A stretch of DNA of 64,000 bases from Octopus vulgaris. Its lineage: Eukaryota. The DNA lies in the NCBI GenBank assembly GCA_951406725.2, contig OX597818.1:144894001-144958000 (forward strand), read 5' to 3'. This document shows positions 24,196 through 41,065 of this stretch, one piece after another (position 1 is the stretch's first letter; every line of letters begins with the position of its first letter). The notes beneath the pieces are model-generated. The model was not told the origin of the DNA and made no database searches. It worked only from the letters and a program-made list of their open reading frames with translations. A program made the translations under genes and the position numbers.

Positions 24196-26279
24196 TTTGG
24201 CAATGGAATGTAGGCCATAAATGCAGAGGAAATGCAGAGGCTTGAAGGAACTGAAGCCAGCATGCTCTGCTTGATGTGCAACATCAATATGCACATATGA
24301 CAAAGAGCAAAGGTATTGAGAGAAAAACTGTATACGAGGCATCAAATATGCAAGAGAAGACAATGTTAGTATGGTCAAATGACATGTGTAGATGAGGATA
24401 GGTGCATAACAAAAGGCTGGTTGTTAAATGTGGACAAAATCTGTGGAAGACTATTGGTGCTGTGTTTAATAAGTAACTTGGTGCAATTAGTTTTTTCTGT
24501 TTTAGAAATTTTGGTTGTCTTTTGCTTTCGATTATTTTGTGTATCTCAAGTGTTTTCATTGATGGATTTGCTGCAATAATGTAATGTTATGATGGATAAT
24601 GTTGCATGTTTCTGTATTTTATGGACAAAATGTTGTGATGTAAGGCAGACTATTTTGTGTGTTGGAATTGTTTTTTGTCCTTTGTAATTCTTGAATGCCT
24701 ATTGCTGTGGCACATTCAATTTTTGTTGGGTATTTTCAAGTAGTGTTTATTTTAGTCCTCTGAGATTTTATTTCAAGTTTCAAAATTTAAAGCAATTGAA
24801 CATAAAATCTGTGCTAGATTAGGTGGGGGTCAATTTTATGAGTTTGGGGTCAAAGGAAGTAAATAGTATTTTTTTTTTGAGTCTGTCAACGTGTAGTGGA
24901 TGATGGCTTCGATGATTGCTTTTTTGATAATTAAAATAACATTGTGGCTAACTACATGGGAGAAGATACTGGAAGAAATTAGACCTACAAAGGCACCACA
25001 AACACTCATAATTGTTAAATACAGTACATGTGTATACATATGTGTACATGCACAGATACAAACACACATCTACCTACACATACACATGAACAAATACATA
25101 CACAAACATGCACATATTATACACACACACACATTAGGTAAACCAACTGTTACTATCTAACAGTTTGTGGAACTTCTCAGTGACATCCAACTTGGTAACA
25201 GATTGCCTTTTTTAATAGTTCTGCTCTTCTGATCACTTCTTCCAACATCTTCAATGCCGATCTTATGCCACTCATCTCCAGAGGGAACAAAATTTCATTT
25301 TTACTCTCTTTGAACATACACACCTTTGGTCTAAATTCACCACCTCACTTTTTCTAACTTGCACCTTATTCCCACCTGCTCTAGAATTACATACCTATTC
25401 CCTTTGATTTCTCCTTCTCTCCTGCAACCTCATATTCACACACACACATACCCTCAACACACTAACGCAGCTTCCATATATGCACACACTCCCTTCAACC
25501 AATCACACTCATTCACATCTTTCACTTACGTCTCCATTTATTTCCCATCTGGTCCCTGATATGCATGCACACACACACACACACACCTACCTCTATTCAC
25601 CCACCACTTTGTTTCTTTGATACACACAGGCACACACATGCCTGCACCCAATTTTGCTTCACACACACACATACTGGCCCTCTCTCTTATACATGCATTT
25701 GCACACATATACACACCCTGCTCTTCACACACACACACATTCTTCATATTTCCGGCACTTCTGTTTTGGTTGACAGCTTTGAATCCCCTACATTTCACAA
25801 CTACCTCTGCTTATTGTTGGTCAACCTGCCAAAACCGCATCCAATACACACACGTGCTACATCTTCCATACTTCTCTCTCCTTACAGTCCACTTAAAAAA
25901 TTGTTCCCCTGTGCCAATTTCTTTTTATATTATGTGTTTCATCTAGCTTTTCCTCTGTTCATTACAGGTATTTCTCCCCCATGGATATTTACCAGCTTCT
26001 TCATCACAGTTACCTCTTCCCCTTCATGTATTTTACCAGTTTCGTACCATCCTCTTTAACACTCTGCCTAACTTTGCAAACCTTTTATAGTCATCAGTTT
26101 TTTCTTCCTTTTCTCACCTCCTCTATACTCTCTTTCATTCTGATAAAAGGACTAATATTCAAAATGTCAAAACACTTTCTCTTTCCACCAAAGCATTAAG
26201 CTAATACCTTACTTGTCAAACTTTATTCCTTCTTTATTGTCATTTTCTTTGTTTTTACATAATAAGCACAAATATATAT

Positions 26280-31577: not shown

Positions 31578-31610
<33 letters not shown>

Positions 31611-31810
31611 ATCTGTGTTTGTCCTCCTAGCATTGTTTGACAACCGATGCTGGTGTGTTTACGTCCCCGTCACTTAGCGGTTCGGCAAAAGAGATCGATA
31701 GAATAAGTACTGGGCTTACAAAGAATAAGTCCCGGGGTCGATTTGCTCGACTAAAGGCGGTGCTCCAGCATGGCTGCAGTCAAATGACTGAAACAAGTAA
31801 AAGAGTAAAA
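31485..31810 (+). mobile_element. SINE family B, 5'-truncated
   Basis: GTGGCATCTTGGGCAAGTGTCTTC...(TA)n...GACTGAAACAAGTAAAAG. Confidence 0.85.
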
Positions 31811-32116
31811 GAGAGTAAAGAGTATATACACACACACACACATACAGCTGAACCATACAGCACATTATTTTATTCTTTTACTTGCTTCAGTCATTTGACT
31901 GTGGCCATTCTGGAGCACTGCCTTTAGTTGAGCAAATCGCCCTCAGGATTTATTCTTTGTAAGCCTAGTACTTATTCTATCAGTCTATTTTGCCGAACCG
32001 CTAAGTTACAGTGACATAAACACACCAGCATTGGTTGTCTAGCAATGTTTGTTGGGGGGGGGGGGGGCACAAACACACACACAAACATATACAAACACAT
32101 ATATGTGTGTGTGTGT

Positions 32117-32159
<43 letters not shown>

Positions 32160-32374
32160 CATTATTAAATCTCTGAACGAGATGTAAACAGTAACGGCTC
32201 GACAATGTAAAGTATAATAGCCATCTCAATATGGCTAACAACAAAGGGGGGGGGTGTTACTGTAGATTTTTAGCCCCAGGAGATCATCGTCTCCAGCTGG
32301 CTTTAGGCACACTATCTGTGCCCTTATGGTATTTGCAAAGGGAGGCCATCCCTTTCTCGTAAGCCTAAGTGATA

Positions 32375-32419
32375 TGCACGGACTGCAGTTTCGAGGTTGT
32401 TGCCTCTTGTCAACGGGCG
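32375..32419 (-). ncRNA. Minimal type I hammerhead ribozyme, U3-A8 core variant (left arm)
   Basis: The minus strand reads CGCCCG-UUGACAA-GAGG(CAACAA)CCUC-GAAA-CUGCAG-UC-CGUGCA. Confidence 0.72.
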
Positions 32420-32451
32420 GTAATCACTGGATTACGATGAAAGGTGATTAC

Positions 32452-32496
32452 CGCCCGTTGACAAGAGGCAACAACCTCGAAACTGCAGTCCGTGCG
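32452..32496 (+). ncRNA. Minimal type I hammerhead ribozyme, U3-A8 core variant (right arm)
   Basis: CGCCCG-UUGACAA(32458-64)-GAGG(CAACAA)CCUC-GAAA(32479-82)-CUGCAG-UC-CGUGCG. The triplet is GUC, helix III is the palindrome ACUGCAGU, and stem I pairs at 5 of 6 positions. Confidence 0.75.
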
Positions 32497-32658
32497 TATC
32501 ACTTAGGCTTACGAGAAAGGGATGGCCTCCCTTTGCAAATACCATAAGGGCGCAGATAGTGTGCCTAAAGCCAGCTGGAGACGATGATCTCCTGGGGCTA
32601 AAAGCTACAGTAACACCCCACCTTTGTGGTTAGCCATATTGAGATGGCTATTATACTT

Positions 32659-32694
<36 letters not shown>

Positions 32695-33101
32695 ACAGGT
32701 TTCTTTCAGCTTTCATCTACCAAATCTACTCACAAGGCCTTGGTTGGCCCAAGGCTATAGACGCCAAGTTGCCACATAGCGGGACTGAACCCGGAACCAT
32801 GTGGTTGGTTAGCAAGTTACTTATCACACAGCCATGTTTATTATTACTTTTGCCCCCAAAATTACTGATGGTAGTGTTATTTTTTTTTCCATTTAAGATG
32901 TTTCAGCAAAGAGACAAGAAAATAATGACCTCCTCCTTTCCCATAAGAAAAGAAATATTAACTTACATAGAAAATGTAATGACAAAAATAAATACAAAAT
33001 TGATATAATTCTAATCAAACTGAATTTTATGTACCGTTTTTTTATTTCCCAGACATGACAGTATTGTGGATCAGTTATCCATCACTTCAAACACCAACAT
33101 A

Positions 33102-33470
33102 CTGGGTTCTCATTCCTAAGGTATTTTTATGACGTTGTTGTAATTATTATTATTATTATTATTCAGGTCACTGCCTGGAATTGAACTCGGAATCTGGGGG
33201 TTAGTAGCCTGTGCTCTAAACCATATGATGTAGTGGTTAAGAGCACGGGCTACTAACCCCAATATTTCGAGTTCGATTCCAGGCAGTGACCTGAATAATA
33301 ATAATAATAATAATAATACCAATACCAACAACAACATCGGAAAAATACCTTAGGAATGAGAACCCTGGTTCAAAATTCCTCATGGACACCTGATGAAGGC
33401 TGGAGAGTACATCAGCCGAAACTTAACAACAGACAAGATGAGGCCAAATGTAAATAATGTAAACAATCCT
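33102..33470 (+). mobile_element. tRNA-headed SINE-like element with hammerhead tail and an inverted 5' duplication
   Basis: tRNA-like head at 33230-33291 (TAGTGGTTAAG, anticodon-like loop CTACTAA, B box GTTCGATTCC), (AAT)n linker, then CTGATGA-AGGCTG..CAGCC-GAAAC at 33390-33422. 33104-33223 is the reverse complement of 33234-33365. Confidence 0.85.
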
Positions 33471-33854
33471 CACCCCACGTTCAGAAATTTTGTTTTCAAT
33501 ACCAATTTCCATATAATCGGAATCTACACCATCCAAAGCGTATTTGCAGAGAATTTCACTAAAAAATAATTATTTTTCCGGAAGTCACGAGGGCAAAAAA
33601 GTCGCTGGGAAGGAACACATGTGGAGATATACCTAAATAAGATTTTTATGTAAATTTTATGTCTTAGAAGTTGGTGTAGGAAAGTAACGGAGAATACTGA
33701 CTCCTCACCTATTTCATTTAACTGGGACACCCAATCCATTTTTGAATTTTCCCAGGTTGTTTTAGTTTCATCAGTTACTTCGTAAGATTTAGGGGCCTAA
33801 AACTAAAGACCACCAACGCCAGCATAAACATATCTTTATATATAGGTCAAACTA

Positions 33855-34660
33855 ATATAAAAATGAAATGCGCGCTCGTGAACGGGGATGGGGGAGATGA
33901 CTCAGAAAGTTCCCATTGTGAATGTTCCGAGACGTCTCACCACAGCCAAAAAAAACTTGCGGATCTTTTTGGTTTGAACGGCAGTTTTTCTAGCAGTGTC
34001 ATATGAAATTGTCACCCATAATTATGACCCTAGTATCGATCTATTGCATTTCAATCTATTTTAGGGTTAGGGTTACGATTAGGGGTGGGGGGAAGGGTAT
34101 CTTTTGATCTTCACAAATGTAAATATACCCAATCTGTTTTTTAAACGAGGGACATATTCATACGGCACAGAATGTTGTTTACCTCAATAGACGTCAGTGA
34201 TTGGTTAAAATTGCAGAAATTGAAGAAAAAACAACAAATATCTTACAAACTATAGAATTTTCTCAATAAAGCCAAGATGTTTTATAAACACATTCTACCA
34301 ATATACGAAGTTTAAATTTTTTAGTTACTTAGAAATTATGTTAAAAACTTCCGTTCAAACCGAAAAGATCCAAACTTGCTGTAAACGAATATGAAAAAAA
34401 AAAAAAAATGCGCCATCGCGGTGGTGCGTGGGAGGGGGAGAGGACTCGGAACATTCACATCCTATCTTTTTTCATATTCGTTTACTGCGAGCGCGCATTT
34501 TTCTTTTCATATTCGTTTACTACATGTTGTTGTACACCTATTACACTATTTTCCTTTTTTTTCTTTTTTGCCTGTGGTGAGACGACTCGGAACATTCACG
34601 ATGGGAACTTTCCGAGTCCTCTCCCCCACTCCACCTTCGCGCATTTTTTTCATATTCGTT
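33855..34660. repeat. Nested inverted-repeat (fold-back) element with GACTCGGAACATTCAC modules
   Basis: 33870-33947 is the imperfect reverse complement of 34571-34642. GTAAACGAATATGAAAAAA (34381) is inverted relative to 34466 and 34504. Confidence 0.65.
33961..34371. mobile_element. Merlin-like MITE with internal TTAGGG repeats, copy 1
   Basis: TIRs GGATCTTTTTGGTTTGAACGGCAGTTTTT / AAAAACTTCCGTTCAAACCGAAAAGATCC and a perfect 8-bp TSD AAACTTGC. GG termini plus an 8-bp TSD fit Merlin. Confidence 0.85.
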
Positions 34661-34899
34661 GTTTTACAACATATTACACTGTTTATTCTTTTTTTGTTTT
34701 TGTTTTGTTCGGATCAAACCCTTTAGTAACACATGTCGCGAAAACAAAGAGCTATGGGTTCGAATCGCATGCGTTCAAGAACCCTACCTTTTTTTTTTTG
34801 GTTAGAGCTTAAATGCTCGAGTATTTGACTATTTCTTTAGTCATTGCAGTGATTGCTTATAAGCTTTAAGTTTATAAAATATCATTGTCATAATTTACA

Positions 34900-34934
<35 letters not shown>

Positions 34935-35301
34935 TAGATAGAGAGAGAGAGAGAGAGAGTGAGAGAGAGGCGTGCGCTTTCGTTGACATAGTGAGAAAAA
35001 TCGAAAAAAGCGGTGCTTTCCGAACGAAGTTCCTTGCATCGATTGTAACATGTATCAATGATGCGATTTTTCTATTTGAATGTGTGTATATAAATAAACA
35101 TACGTCAGTGATATGTGACTGTGTATACATATCTGTCTACTTTTACGAAACAAATGTTCAATAAAAATCAAGAGACGAATCTAATATTTTTACAGTCAGA
35201 AATGAAGAATGCGATCTTAAAATATCACTTGTTGCACCTACATAGGTCCACATTCACACATACATATGTATGTATATATATATATATATATATACATACA
35301 T

Positions 35302-35337
<36 letters not shown>

Positions 35338-35339
35338 CT

Positions 35340-35407
<68 letters not shown>

Positions 35408-35605
35408 TGTATTTTACCTAAGAACGTGTACTGAAACGGAAATAATTATACTTTAGAAGGATTAGTTTAGCCATTTGCAGTAGAATAGTGCCAGAGTTGG
35501 GTTGCAGAAGTGCGACGAAAATTCAAACTCAAGGTAAAAACGAAAAGTTAAAAGTTTTTGTGTTCTTCAATATATAAAATAGTTCTTCCACGACGTAATA
35601 TTATG

Positions 35606-35642
<37 letters not shown>

Positions 35643-35705
35643 TGTATGTATGTATATATTTATATATGTGTGTATATATATATATACACATATATATATA
35701 AATAT

Positions 35706-35796
<91 letters not shown>

Positions 35797-35800
35797 TTTA

Positions 35801-35958
35801 AGGAGTGGCTGTGTGGTAAATAGGTTGCTTACCAACCCACATGGCTCCGGGTTCAGTCCCACTGTGTGGCACCTTGGGCAAGTGTCTTCTGCTATAGCCT
35901 CGGGCCGACCAAAGCCTTGTGAGTGGATTTGATAGACGGAAACTGAAAGAAGCCCATC

Positions 35959-35960
<2 letters not shown>
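35801..35960 (+). mobile_element. SINE family B 5' half embedded in long (TA)n tracts
   Basis: GGAGTGGCTGTGTGGTAAA...GGGTTCAGTCCCACTG...GAAGCCCATCG(TA)n. Confidence 0.85.
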
Positions 35961-36007
<47 letters not shown>

Positions 36008-36008
36008 C

Positions 36009-36096
<88 letters not shown>

Positions 36097-36937
36097 ATGA
36101 TCGTTCAATTCGTTGCTATTCGAAAGTTCTCGCTCGATCGTTCAGGTGATAATCTACTTTAGAACATGTATTGAGTACTCTTTCTAGTTTTTGTCAAACC
36201 AAATATGTGTGTGTGTGTTAAGTGGTGGGTTGGAGTTGTCATAACACCAACAGAGTCGGCTTAGTTCGAATAAGCAAGGCAGAGACGAGAATAGATGGGC
36301 AAATGGAAGTGAAAGAGAAGAGAAAAACTACGAACAAAATATTTGGAATACGTACCAATAAATGTCAATGTTATAAGTTAGCAAAATGACCAATAAACCA
36401 TGTAGGAGAAGGAGAATAGAGTGAGAGGGCATGAAGGGAAATAGTAAGATAGAGAGAGAGGGGTAAATAGATAGATAGATAGAGGTAAGCGGAGAGATGG
36501 GGGAGATAATGAGATGTAGGTAGAGAAATAGATAGAGAGAGAGAGAGAGATGTAGAGTTGAGAGAAAGAGAAATGGGTAGATAGAAGAATAAATACGTGT
36601 GAAGAGAGATTGAGATGTGAGAGAGGGAGAGGCAGAGGAATGGAAAGCGATAGATAGATATGTAGAGGGGGTGAAGTATGAGAGAGAGAGGTAGATAAGC
36701 AGATATATAGAGAGAGGTAGAGAGAAAGGGAGAGAAGTGTTTCGCTGACGGAGATGTTTACATTTGTGACCAAGGAAGTGTGAATACAGAAGAGGTTTGA
36801 CTTGTCTTCCTTCTTTCATTCATTCGATTTCAACGCAAAACCCCGACACCATTTTCGTAGCCCCTTCTTGCAATGTCCCCTCATTTATTGTTTTTGTGGC
36901 AATAAAAAAAGGAAATTATTTGGTGAATGTTAACAAC

Positions 36938-37024
36938 ATGGCCGCGTGCCCCCAGCATGCAACGCGCCGACGACATGGACGCCAGACTCGTTGCCAGCGA
37001 GTGGTAGCGGTGGTAGTAGAAGTA
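36938..37024 (+). other. Candidate first exon or promoter-proximal CpG-rich segment
   Basis: AACAACATGGCCGC (good start context, YY1-like) opens 29 codons ending at a GTAAGT donor (37025). The segment is locally CpG-rich. No recognisable homology. Confidence 0.25.
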
Positions 37025-37965
37025 GTAAGTGATGTAGTAGGAGGAGGGGAGAAGGGGAGTAGCAACATCATTGACAGTCGAAACAACGGAAACCTCTACG
37101 AGGTCTCTCGATATACTAGAAATAGCAGCCAAATTCTTTCAAAACACACCCTAATATTCGCAGAACATTAGGAAAAGGACATGATAGATAATTTGGTACT
37201 GGATCCCATGCACATTGGGAATAGACTGATGGTCAGGGCTATAATGTTTTTGACCGCAGGTCTACTCAATCACGGCTGACTTGGGGTTAAACAACTGCAA
37301 CGGAATGTCTACGTTGTCGCTTGAACAGGTGGAAATAGCAGCTATACTTCTCTCAAATCGCACCTACGAACAATACAATCCCAGATACACCCAGAATGGC
37401 GTGATGGTGATGAATGCTTTTTTTTTAATCATATCTTGTTTTGCTCAGTCAGGACCAGCCTGGGACAGACACACCGCCACCAACACCAACAAACAATAAC
37501 AGCAGCAGCAGTATATAAGGTATCTGTTACAAGAACAGCAATAACAATAGCGACGGTAACCACTTCAACAACTGTAGGAATAACTGCGGAAAATGTTTAC
37601 CATTAGACTCATCTCGTTCTAAATGGGTGGTTTTACCTAATGAAAAAAATGATCTCCGATAGTTGTAATTAGATTCGTTCAAAGTACATAAAAAAACATA
37701 GCAAAAATAAACACATTTCACCTTCAAAGTGAGACGAGTAATAACAACTACAAAAACAATGTCAAAACGGGACGAGCGACAGTGTTTCTAATCAGAATAA
37801 CATTTAGAAGAACTACGGTAAACAGCAGCAAAAGAAGCAGCAGTTGGCGTTTCTATGGCAACTTGTCAACAGAATCGCTTGTAGCGGCCAGTCAGGCGTC
37901 AGAGAAACGAAAATTTTCTTTCCTAACACTCACCAAAAAAGAAAAAAAATTCGCTTCAGCACACG

Positions 37966-38044
<79 letters not shown>

Positions 38045-38057
38045 TAACATATACATA

Positions 38058-39271
38058 CTGGTAATGGAAGAATTGGTGACGCGCATCCTCGATGATAGTG
38101 ATGCTGTTGACATCGTTTTATTGGACTTTGCCAAAGCTTTTGACTCGGTTAACCACCGCCTATTACTTGTCAAGCTTCAAGCATATAGTTTCCATCCGGA
38201 TATTGTACGATGGGTTGGTGCCTTCCTCTCAGATCGCTCCTTCCAAGTCCAAGTTAATGGTTCGCGGTCCGACGTCTCCAGTGCGAGCAGTGGCGTGCCT
38301 CAAGGTTCAGTGCTTGGGCCCTTATTGTTTTTAGTCTTCATAAATGACTTGCCCGACGACCTCACGCAACATACCCTTCTATTTGCCGACGATGTCAAAC
38401 TGGTCGTTCCTCGCGGTGATATAGAGGATCTTCGTCGATGCCTCCACCAAATTTGGAGGTGGTCTAACGAATGGGACCTGTGTCTGAACGTGTCAAAGTG
38501 CTGTCATCTGCCTGTTGGCTCTCCTCCTGCAACTCAACTTGATTTCGAGCCGGGTCGTCTGCTGCTGGAGAGGACCGATCAGGTAAAGGACCTGGGTATC
38601 TTGGTCGATTCCTCCTTTTCGCCTTCGGCCCAGTGCGTCCATGCTGCCAACAAAGCACGCGGAATTCTGTTCTTGATTCGACGGTCATTCGGAATGCTCA
38701 CAGCAGCCATATTCCTACCACTCTATTGCACGCTGGTGAGACCCATATTGGAGTACGGGATTCAAGCCTCTTCTCCTTATCTCCTCAAAGACATACAGCA
38801 TCTCGAAAGAGTCCAGAAGCTGGCTACCCGCATGGTTCATGGTCCCAAAAATTTGTCTTATGAAGAAAGGCTGAGGACGCTCGACCTTTATTCTCTAGAA
38901 AACGCCGCCGCCGTGGTGATCTCATTCTCGCTCACAACATCATAAGCGGAAAGTGTAACCTCTCGAAAGAGCTGTTCTTCACTCCTGCTCCAGAGCGTCG
39001 GCTGCGGGGTCATTCCGAAAAGCTCTACCTGCGACGATTTCATCTCAATCGAAGGAGAGGAGCTTTCTCCGTCCGGGTTGCGGTTCCGTGGAACAAGCTG
39101 CCAGACGAGATGGTGAAGATGCCGACGACCGCTTTGTTCAAAGTCTCCCTGGACCTCAAGTGGCCTGAACTCTTTACATGAACACCACCCTGTACTTAAC
39201 TCCATGTCCCTCTACATGGCCTTGCTATTTGCTTTTGAGCCAAAAATTAACTAACTAACTAACTAACTAAC
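38058..39271 (+). mobile_element. CR1-group LINE, 5'-truncated copy 3 (RT core to C-terminus, one frameshift at ~38900)
   Basis: RT motifs LLDFAKAFDSVNH, GVPQGSVLGPLLF, LFADDVKL and KDLGI. A 1-nt deletion relative to copy 2 lies at LEK/RRR, the stop is at 39179-39181, and there is a (TAAC)n tail. Confidence 0.95.
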
Positions 39272-39355
39272 ATATGAACCAAAATAGAAAGCGTTACCAA
39301 TATTAATGATATTATTTACAATTGACAGTTATTTGTCCTCATCTTGTTTGTTGTT

Positions 39356-39400
39356 AACACAACGTTTCGGCTGATATACCTCCAGCCTTCATCAGGTGTC
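39356..39400 (-). ncRNA. Minimal type I hammerhead ribozyme (left arm)
   Basis: The minus strand reads GACAC-CUGAUGA-A-GGCUG(GAGGUAUAU)CAGCC-GAAA-CG-UU-GUGUU. Confidence 0.8.
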
Positions 39401-39466
39401 TTGGGAATTTTCGAACCTGGGTTCTCATTCCTAAGGTATGAGAACCTAGGTTCGAAATTTTCCCAA

Positions 39467-39512
39467 GACACCTGATGAAGGCTGGAGAGTATATCAGCCG
39501 AAACGTTGTGTT
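39467..39512 (+). ncRNA. Minimal type I hammerhead ribozyme (right arm)
   Basis: GACAC-CUGAUGA(39472-78)-A-GGCUG(GAGAGUAUAU)CAGCC-GAAA(39500-03)-CG-UU-GUGUU. The core is canonical, stem I is GACAC/GUGUU, helix III is the palindrome ACGU, and cleavage is predicted after 39507. Confidence 0.82.
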
Positions 39513-40418
39513 AACAACAAACAAGATGAAGACAAATATAGGTCAATTGTAAATATGTAAATAATGTACATAATTCCTCATCTCTTAAAAATAGAACTGT
39601 AGTATTAATGACATCAAATGTTGAAAGAATGGCCAGTGTGAAAGGACCAATTCTGAGCATAAAGAAATGAAAGAAGGGCTCTTGTCCAGTTGATCAGGCA
39701 CCCGTGGCTTTTGTGGGCTTTTCCACGAGGACCTTTAAAGTACCTCCCCTATTAGGACTTTTACCTTGTTCAATTTTATTTATTTATTTATTGTTTACAC
39801 GATGAAAACCCTTTGTCTCGTCTTGTGTTGTCTTTACGTTGTTTGCATATCCTTTAATGTTGTTTTATGTAAGCCCTTGTGGCTAATAAAATAATGAATT
39901 AGTAATGACATCATTTAAAACGGTGAGCTGACAGAATCGTTAGCATGCCGAGCAAAATGCTTAGCAGCAACTCGTCCGTTTTTACGTTCTGAGTTCAAAT
40001 TCCACCGAGGTCGACTTTGCCTTTCATCCTTTCGGGGTCAATAAATTAAGGACCAGTGAATCACTGGAATCGACTAGTCTCCTCCTCACAAATTCCAGGC
40101 CTTGTGCCTTTAGTAGAAAGGATTATTTATGACATCATTTAAGCCGGCGAGCTGTTAGAATCGTTATCTTGCCGGGCAAAGATGCTTGGCGGTATTTCGA
40201 CCGTCTTTACGTTCTGAGTTCAAATTCCGCCGAGGTCGACTTTGCTTTTCATCCTTTAGAGATCGATAAAATAAGTACCAGTTGAGTACTGAGATCGATG
40301 TAATCGACTATCTCCCTCCACCAAATTTCAGGCCTTGTGTTTATAGTAATCCTATAGGATTATTAATGACATCAAAAATGTGGCGAGCTGGCATTATCGT
40401 AATCACACCTGACAAAAT

Positions 40419-41065
40419 GCTTTTGACCGACAGATTTAGAAAATAATCTTTTGTAACTAAACACTTTCAAACTTCGGACACTGGTAGAATGTGTCATATA
40501 AACCATCTTTTACTCTTAGCATTTTTGAGAAAGCTTATATTTACGAAGTTATTTCACGTTAAAGTAGTCGTATTTCGGTAATTTCAACCAATCAATGACG
40601 TGTATCCAGCTGAATAAAATTACTGCGGTTGTTTGTCAACAAGAACTTCCAGCGGTGTATATTTCGTTTGTCACTGTTATTTATGACAACCCTAACCCTA
40701 ACACCCTAGCCCTAAAACCCTAACCCTAACCCTAAAACCCTAACCTTAAAACCCTCAAGTTAAAACCAGTACAAACGCACGAACGATGTCATAATAGCAA
40801 TTACAAACGAAAAACCCACCGCCGATAGTTTTTGTTGACAAACAACGACAGTAATTTTATGCAGCTGAATACACGTCATCGATTGGTTGAAATTACCGAA
40901 ATACGACTTCTTTAACGTGAAATAACTTCGTAAATATAAGCTTTCTCAAAAATGCTAAGAGTAAAAGATATTTCATATGACACATTCTACCAGTGTCCGA
41001 AGTTTGAAAGTGTTTAGTTACAAAAAATTATTTTTTAAATCTGTCGGTCAAAAGGTAAAGATCCT
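40419..41065. mobile_element. Long-TIR fold-back MITE (Merlin-like) with a central (CCCTAA)n tract
   Basis: The arms 40419-~40690 and ~40785-41054 are reverse complements. The right end is AAAGATCC, it shares CACATTCTACCAGT...GAAGTTT with the 33961 MITE, and the left terminus is clipped. Confidence 0.85.

Follow-up and report, generated by a model that had tools for sequence, protein, structure and literature searches.

What are the three head-to-head inverted inserts that lie within 7.4 kb of one another on contig C5 of the Octopus vulgaris genome, and by which machinery were they made? They occupy positions 32158-32663, 33104-33473 and 39311-39601 of the 64,000-nt stretch analysed here (the window; C5:144894001-144958000, lying 2.6 Mb from the end of C5 in a genome assembly of 2.8 Gb and 227 contigs) and represent two unrelated families, as had been proposed, termed family B (the first insert) and family A (the other two). 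The original prediction saw in them one system of short non-autonomous retroelements, armed with minimal hammerhead ribozymes and integrating as fold-backs, that would parasitize a Penelope-like reverse transcriptase (RT). The three inserts are instead independent insertions, and those at 33.2 and 39.4 kb are probably copies of the pseudo-long terminal repeat (pLTR) of a coding Penelope/Poseidon element, in which a tRNA-like cassette with A and B boxes stands at the start of the repeat; most copies would derive from a short RNA polymerase III (Pol III) transcript reinserted by the element's enzyme, that is, from a short interspersed element (SINE) nested in its autonomous partner.

The abundance of family A was estimated from 100 fixed-position 10-kb stretches (1 Mb in total), in which 17 inserts correspond to ~48,000 genome-wide (95% range 28,000-76,000; ~45,000 if two pieces at locus L246 are counted as one insert), while the exact 34-nt core pattern of the family occurs 2,300 times in the genome. 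Two further sets were collected by query, one with the tRNA-like head (30 loci) and one with the 3' module (29 loci); the latter set and the 1-Mb sample were not chosen on the head. The hammerhead module was located downstream of the head in 26 of the 30 head-query loci. Starting from a decayed RT fragment in the sample, 150 genomic matches were scored; among the best 30 of these, the head lies 870-935 nt downstream of the RT match, directly after the open reading frame (ORF), in 19 loci, and further downstream in a 20th. The order in the coding element is ORF, stop, tRNA-like head, (AAT)n, minimal hammerhead, 3' end, tail and next ORF; locus L200 displays the layout pLTR, tail, ORF, pLTR, and a direct pLTR piece precedes the ORF in 40 (31 + 9) of 51 ORF-start loci. 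The ORF-adjacent head and this repeat-tail-ORF-repeat layout identify family A, judged from sequence organization, as the pLTR of a coding Penelope/Poseidon-type element.

The longest open coding copy (P0001) encodes 569 amino acids with a Penelope-like element (PLE)-type RT and a GIY-YIG-like end. Its RT matches Pfam RVT_1 at an E value of 2.7e-6, under the curated cut-off, the Pfam GIY-YIG model gave no score on this decayed copy, and its identity to the other Penelope-like protein of the genome is 28% (BLASTP E 5e-44). The Neptune Zn-finger-like linker between RT and endonuclease (EN), absent in P0001, is present in the 781-aa protein of a young Neptune-like PLE; such a linker is a feature of Neptune and Nematis (PMC8557442, cited here, like the other publications, from excerpts of its text). 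Relatives, 55-68% identical, occur in other assemblies, and eight metagenome relatives with 34-42% identity are too distant and are cut short.

The family A 3' modules have the same majority sequence as the coding Penelope end repeats, divergence is 6.1% in short and 6.2% in ORF-linked copies (74 short vs 37 coding copies), and no diagnostic substitutions set the two groups apart. One majority sequence and equal divergence imply that short and ORF-linked copies were amplified together and are old. For family A, the prediction of a short parasite with a sequence of its own is therefore not supported. The refutation that the original prediction had named, copies that are mostly plain truncated ends of coding elements, holds by half: family A did prove to be the pLTR of a coding Penelope element, and only a sharp pile-up of 5' ends at the promoter keeps the SINE reading. 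Longer (AAT)n spacers in short copies were rejected as flank-length bias, and the head variants by which the sets differ were put down to CpG decay and to the choice of query. The young Neptune-like element was likewise discarded as a source of family A or B, there being no nucleotide similarity in 20 loci.

The tRNA-like head aligns best with a genomic tRNA-Arg (49 of 74-75 nt, z 6-7, in a comparison with 20 of 34 listed tRNA genes of 6 isotypes). Its acceptor stem, as read from the sequence, is unpaired, and the Rfam tRNA model gave no match on the one family A copy tested; ARAGORN at its default threshold reported no tRNA in the window, and its output at a lowered threshold was swamped by noise and discarded. 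The A and B boxes of the head match the consensus of Pol III boxes, and the Pol III promoter assigned earlier to at least one of the families stands, as a tRNA-type promoter sequence present in family A. In the two sets not chosen on the head, 44 arms contain part of it, 11 stopping inside and 33 reaching the A box; 29 of these 33 end 3-24 nt before the A box, and 4 continue into the ORF. The 5' stop rate per nucleotide is 7.2% at this boundary, 0.63% inside the head and 0.21% upstream, with the values near -19 to -24 inflated by short fold-backs. The pile-up before the A box, taken together with the boxes, points to a Pol III start, and the copies are likely not random truncations, their 5' ends falling where such a start would put them. 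A pile-up at the ribozyme cut site, seen in only 3 of 50 ORF-start copies, is not claimed.

SINEs are described as parasites of long interspersed elements (LINEs). The short form of family A appears to behave like a SINE but not to depend on a LINE, since the shared end and the insertion footprints belong to a PLE. According to the favoured reading, Pol III would start a short RNA at the tRNA-like cassette, and the element's own enzyme would reinsert it. The single minimal hammerhead in this RNA would be unable to cut alone, a lone minimal hammerhead requiring a dimer (PMC4209133), and the uncut short RNA would stay linear and keep its start. An RNA with two hammerheads, on the other hand, would be cut and perhaps circularised, which would yield copies running through the head and a hot spot of deletions at the cut site. 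Head-to-head pairs would arise by priming at both target ends, from two fixed points ~40 nt apart.

The distribution of 5' ends also bears on an unlikely alternative, namely that family A consists of ordinary truncated Penelope ends, the cassette being a dead SINE that landed in the 3' untranslated region (UTR) and the enzyme stalling or self-priming on a hairpin before the A box. It would account for the likeness of short and coding copies in majority sequence and age, the (AAT)n after the head resembles a SINE tail, several copies do fold back on that hairpin, and palindromes at the 5' end of rotifer Penelope pLTRs have been described together with self-priming (PMC3846280). However, the hairpin did not stop 4 of the 6 pLTRs in front of an ORF, nor any of the ORF-linked copies, as opposed to 29 of 33 unselected arms that end there (P 0.003-0.01). 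Only 2 of the 6 ORF-preceding pLTRs that reach the boundary stop at it (P 0.01), making a fixed road-block for the enzyme unlikely, albeit on a small number. Stronger hairpins, in helix II and in the anticodon arm, give few stops, and many of the copies that end at the boundary stand alone or adjoin an inverted piece unrelated to them.

Several points nevertheless weigh against a SINE launched by Pol III. The common majority sequence and age give no sign of an independent short lineage, and the short form may be produced incidentally from the 5' repeat of the long RNA. The comparison with ORF-preceding pLTRs rests on 6 copies, the 5' ends spread over ~12 nt on a small natural hairpin at which several copies fold back, and the 39.4-kb insert has no head, being a plain truncated end; in addition, the cut-site deletion can be explained by enzyme slippage on a 2-nt repeat. 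A short RNA with the same start might also come from a Pol II promoter in the pLTR, or be cut by RNase P from a long transcript at the tRNA-like fold. Penelope promoters do sit in the pLTR (PMC6765202, PMC3846280), which speaks for this account, although we consider it improbable. RNase P needs a paired acceptor stem, which the head does not have, and the short unit in its majority form is free of TTTT. The distance of the start and both boxes, moreover, agree with the spacing and the consensus of A/B-box promoters.

If Pol III reads the short form, it may drive the coding element too, for which the evidence is weaker and lies in the lack of a common TTTT terminator on the coding strand. Among 43-44 ORF-linked loci, any given TTTT run recurs in at most 4 of the 38 copies that cover it, and the majority sequence by column has 0 runs in 2,161 columns, compared with 3.0 expected from base content (P 0.05) and 4.5 per 1,707 nt expected with the codon use of the sister element (P 0.0055); five other PLE ORFs hold 8, 8, 2, 6 and 9 runs. 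The depletion has no significance with an own-codon shuffle or with own Markov/dinucleotide nulls (P 0.63 for a single aged copy, and 0.22-0.36 for having no more than one run), and the signal depends on the null chosen. The scarcity of TTTT is no more than suggestive of Pol III transcription of the coding element. A bolder scenario, conceivable although we lean against it, is that the element swapped the Pol II promoter of its end repeat for a tRNA-type Pol III promoter, that Pol III reads the whole 2.6-kb unit, that paired hammerheads cut and circularise the product, and that solo end repeats became a SINE, amplified by the same enzyme to ~45,000 loci. This would amount to a coding retrotransposon driven by Pol III and a Penelope-dependent SINE born inside its own partner.

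Within the window, the first family A insert (locus 1; L141) starts its left arm inside the A box: this arm (33104-33223, minus strand) contains head, (AAT)n spacer and the start of the 3' module, and stops before the hammerhead. On the plus strand, the tRNA-like head (33222-33293; A box 33226-33236 with two CpG-type changes, B box 33271-33280) is followed by an (AAT)n/(AAC)n spacer (33294-33338) and by the 3' module, the pLTR end (33339-33473). The latter includes a broken minimal hammerhead (33385-33423, plus strand) that kept core and helix II and lost 6 nt at the cleavage site, i.e., the cleavage triplet and the 3' strand of helix I; in public contigs, loose ends at 33422 show the missing 6-nt letters in other copies. 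The second insert (locus 2; L001) consists of a left arm (39311-39433, minus strand) with the 3' module without tail and an intact minimal hammerhead at 39356-39400, and a right arm (39427-39601, plus strand) with the 3' module, a ~40-nt tail and an intact minimal hammerhead at 39467-39512, predicted to cut after 39507. It is enclosed by a 9-bp target-site duplication (39301-39309 and 39603-39611, plus strand). Both hammerheads of locus 2 are of minimal type I (cores at 39472 on the plus and 39395 on the minus strand), with a 5-bp helix I, a 6-bp helix II with bulged first base, no loop 3 and a GUU cut site. The ribozyme of the family A pLTR is a motif with predicted cleavage.

Self-comparison of the window delimits the three palindromes at 32205-32663, 33104-33365 and 39313-39555, with arm identities of 97.7, 93.3 and 94.2%. 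As described originally, the inserts have no long ORF (the longest stop-free frame of the family B monomer is 43 aa in sense and 86 aa in antisense), and they invert at different points: at 33.22 kb inside the A box of the tRNA-like head, at 39.43 kb ~40 nt upstream of the hammerhead core, and at 32.44 kb 14-30 nt upstream of it. Minimal hammerheads pointing outward in every insert, however, were not found: paired hammerheads occur in only two of the three, the 33.2-kb insert having a left arm that ends before the motif and a right arm whose motif is broken, and the 32.4-kb insert, which carries the motif in both arms, being of the retrozyme and not the minimal type. The probability of two inverted family A copies within 7.4 kb at mean density is ~0.002. 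However, exact family A cores cluster at a chromosome end, with 13 in the first 1.7 Mb of contig C1 against 0.82/Mb overall, and the window too is only 2.6 Mb away from a contig end; in the C1 interval 0.29-1.68 Mb they are about nine times denser than average.

Are the palindromes real, and does their shape mark a distinct class? Head-to-head pairs account for 8 of the 17 inserts sampled in 1 Mb; the two query sets contain 19 such pairs among 33 and 20 among 31, and the coding loci 18 among 29. The inverted fraction of the coding loci (18/29) does not differ from that of the other sets taken together (47/81; P 0.83). Inversion is accordingly no class mark, coding copies inverting as often and family B being mostly direct (8 of 30 inverted). 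A ~40-nt tail is found on exactly one arm in 38 of 40 pairs with both arms reaching the 3' end; target duplications of at least 8 nt surround 21 of the 40 pairs and 0 of 40 controls. The arms of one locus are 8.8% apart, compared with 9.3% for random pairs, and the variants common to both arms reach 11.7%, against 4.6 ± 1.4% by chance (maximum 9.3% in 1,000 shuffles). Target duplications and shared arm variants indicate that the pairs are single, real integration events. An origin of the palindromes as assembly artefacts appears extremely improbable: no public contig from four runs spans or contradicts their centres, and contigs anchored in unique flanks enter the 33.1-kb arm for only ~25 nt, yet the two arms of a palindrome diverge by 2-9% and end unequally in a stereotyped manner, and target duplications, among them the 9 bp at 39.4 kb, lie on either side. 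The mobilisation of Penelope type put forward in the original prediction is borne out by the one-arm tail, the target duplications and the inverted arms, and the mirrored shape is the ordinary published insertion footprint of PLEs.

The fold-back mechanism fared less well. In 16 of the 40 two-armed pairs the arms are staggered, neither being contained in the other, which excludes the self-copying of one complementary DNA unless later deletions reshaped these pairs; priming from both target ends can, we infer, produce them. Simple fold-back was rejected as a general explanation of the inversions; it does fit some nested or mirror cases, those at 32.4 and 39.4 kb among them. Deletions at the cut site affect 35 of 127 family A arms, 22 of them being of 3 nt; the deletion rate is 17% at columns 88-91, 10% and 7% in the neighbouring bins and at most 6% elsewhere. 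Over 23 loci the deletion was present in both arms of 2, in one arm of 6 and in neither arm of 15, which is not above chance and implies that the two arms carry it independently. It fits an enzyme jump over a cut, or over re-joined RNA, on a 2-nt overlap, or slippage.

Four loci (L292, L294, L302 and L290) carry internal deletions by which the initial 230-260 nt of the coding unit are fused to the beginning of the head, two of them with an identical junction; they may represent another non-autonomous form or reflect template jumps from the 5' end of the short RNA. On C31, a 12-Mb contig (L214, L215 and 11 RT matches), one coding fragment of family A recurs many times in nearly identical form, apparently within a larger duplicated unit. 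Another minimal hammerhead without loop 3 was encountered in a different repeat (L056:5108, minus strand, and L177:2624).

The insert at 32.4 kb (L011) belongs to family B, whose unit is 350 nt long, non-coding and circularly permuted, with a U3-A8 hammerhead and a long, bulged helix I. Its left arm (32158-32443, minus strand) comprises the last 17 nt of one monomer followed by positions 1-265 (the 3' end and a 47-nt tail) and lies in (TA)n, and its tail-less right arm (32444-32663, plus strand) covers monomer positions 1-217 and ends in (TA)n. The hammerheads, identified by pattern match, are located at 32369-32427 (minus strand; type I with a U3-A8 core, helix III bearing a palindromic tetraloop, cleavage predicted after 32381) and at 32444-32502 (plus strand; core at 32458, predicted cut after 32490). 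A sister copy matched Rfam Hammerhead_HH9 with 34.6 bits (E 6.4e-7), below the gathering score of 52; this match, the U3-A8 core and the extended, bulged helix I assign the ribozyme to the retrozyme type. Among the 30 best loci, which as best matches are young copies, the 3' end falls at position 215-220 in 19 and at 259-265 in 11, 28 run from position 1 into 345-350 of the previous unit, 13 make a full turn or more, and 8 have an inverted arm; none of the 30 is joined to an ORF. Insertion into (TA)n was observed in 13 of 30 (background 9%), and target duplications in 9 of 17 loci outside (TA)n and in none of the controls. The exact 33-nt core occurs 30 times, with a mirrored pair only in the window, and dimers with two hammerheads exist at L019 and C9:34.74 Mb.

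On these sequence features, family B joins the animal non-LTR retrozymes, an already known kind, as a new member. The claim of a non-autonomous hammerhead element is supported for family B; family A is the pLTR of a coding element. In view of the U3-A8 core and the (TA)n targets, family B is likely copied round a circle or from a tandem by a Neptune-type enzyme, while no coding partner similar to it was matched in 20 GIY-YIG and 30 RT loci of PLEs from two clades. The young Neptune-like PLE (L216:3164-6500), with an intact 781-aa ORF in 16 of 148 GIY-YIG matches, has a long, repeat-rich 3' UTR with a U3-A8 hammerhead motif and no nucleotide similarity to family B. A third non-coding family (L036:7459-8345 and L076:9600-10000), with a ~370-nt unit, a U3-A8 hammerhead and head-to-head arms, is built like family B and gave no blastn match to it.

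Elsewhere in the window, a decayed Neptune-like PLE ORF remnant is present at 24497-24726 (minus strand; tblastn E 3e-5), and a 5'-truncated LINE RT fragment at 38070-39275 (Pfam RVT_1 E 9e-23) ends in (TAAC)n, with family A locus 2 following ~30 nt further on; at L020, the same LINE end is succeeded by a family B copy. Inverted arms of 262 nt (92%) flank a (TAACCC)n core at 40420-41054, having the look of a miniature inverted-repeat transposable element. Two opposed copies of a very abundant repeat with a (CA)n core between them lie at 31587-32104, and no hammerhead motif was found in these copies. An Rfam scan of the whole window returned only false matches to hairpins and microsatellites.

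How far do these elements resemble systems already described? The family A element is like the EN-containing (EN+) PLEs of the Penelope/Poseidon clade, such as Pen2a of Adineta (PMC3846280, PMC8557442), in its single RT-GIY-YIG ORF, its pLTRs and an ORF start in the pLTR or tail; the inverted 5'-truncated copy, the 30-40-bp tail on one arm, the 8-12-bp target duplication and the minimal hammerhead in the pLTR are likewise those of EN+ PLEs (same sources), and self-priming has been proposed for their inverted layout (PMC3846280). It differs from EN+ PLEs, as these excerpts describe them, in a pLTR beginning with a tRNA-like A/B-box cassette, described pLTR promoters being of TATA/initiator type, and in solo pLTRs that start at the cassette and outnumber ORF-linked ones several-fold; the word tRNA is absent from PMC3846280. 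The hammerheads of family A resemble the minimal PLE hammerheads of Cervera and de la Pena (2014; PMC4209133), with no loop 3, a 4-5-bp helix I and a long helix II with a bulged 5' base. The same source reports a U3-A8 variant, opposite-strand pairs 100-700 bp apart and mostly single motifs from truncated PLEs; no tRNA head is described in its excerpts, and the extended, bulged helix I of family B departs from its minimal form. Since both non-autonomous Penelope-dependent hammerhead elements and opposite-strand hammerhead pairs have been published (PMC8557442, PMC4209133), the novelty at class level that the original prediction had considered falls away.

Family B, with its 350-nt non-coding unit, type I hammerhead and direct repeats of more than one unit, is like animal non-LTR retrozymes (PMC7229834; Li, Clavereau and Pollet 2026, bioRxiv 10.64898/2026.07.22.740005) and the non-autonomous Chlamys/MRC1 (PMC8557442), and Li, Clavereau and Pollet (2026) propose that retrozymes are derived from PLEs as non-autonomous forms. 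It goes beyond the retrozymes of these excerpts in its U3-A8 core, fixed double 3' ends, target duplications and 27% of inverted copies, and differs from them in that no long arrays were seen and no related pLTR was found. Family A, unlike animal retrozymes, is not a tandem monomer. It shares with the schistosome Sm-alpha/Sj-alpha SINE-like repeats (PMC6765202) the combination, within a short non-coding retroposon, of a Pol III promoter and a hammerhead downstream of it; those repeats, however, are tandem and release monomers by an efficient hammerhead, whereas family A is the dispersed end repeat of a coding PLE and bears PLE footprints.

Octopus repeat papers, in the excerpts consulted, report abundant, mostly unclassified SINEs and Penelope families with no link between them, and full-text searches, with subscription journals, Dfam and Repbase outside their scope, found neither a tRNA-headed Penelope end repeat nor a PLE-dependent SINE; the family may have been named. 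If the favoured reading is true, it opens a new route to the birth of SINEs and names the partner of a very abundant repeat family. Thousands of dated copies also record the poorly understood Penelope mechanism, and the fixed priming points, staggered arms and cut-site deletions make the ideas of twin-priming and of cutting and circularisation testable. Family A is like the tRNA-derived SINEs that share their 3' end with a partner LINE (PMC3899998, PMC6685494) in its tRNA-related head, in a 3' end common with the autonomous partner and in its high copy number. It is unlike them in having a PLE, not a LINE, as its partner, and in that the autonomous element holds the whole SINE, head included. 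The inverted shape and family B are of known kinds; the new part is a tRNA-type promoter sequence built into the end repeat of a coding Penelope element.

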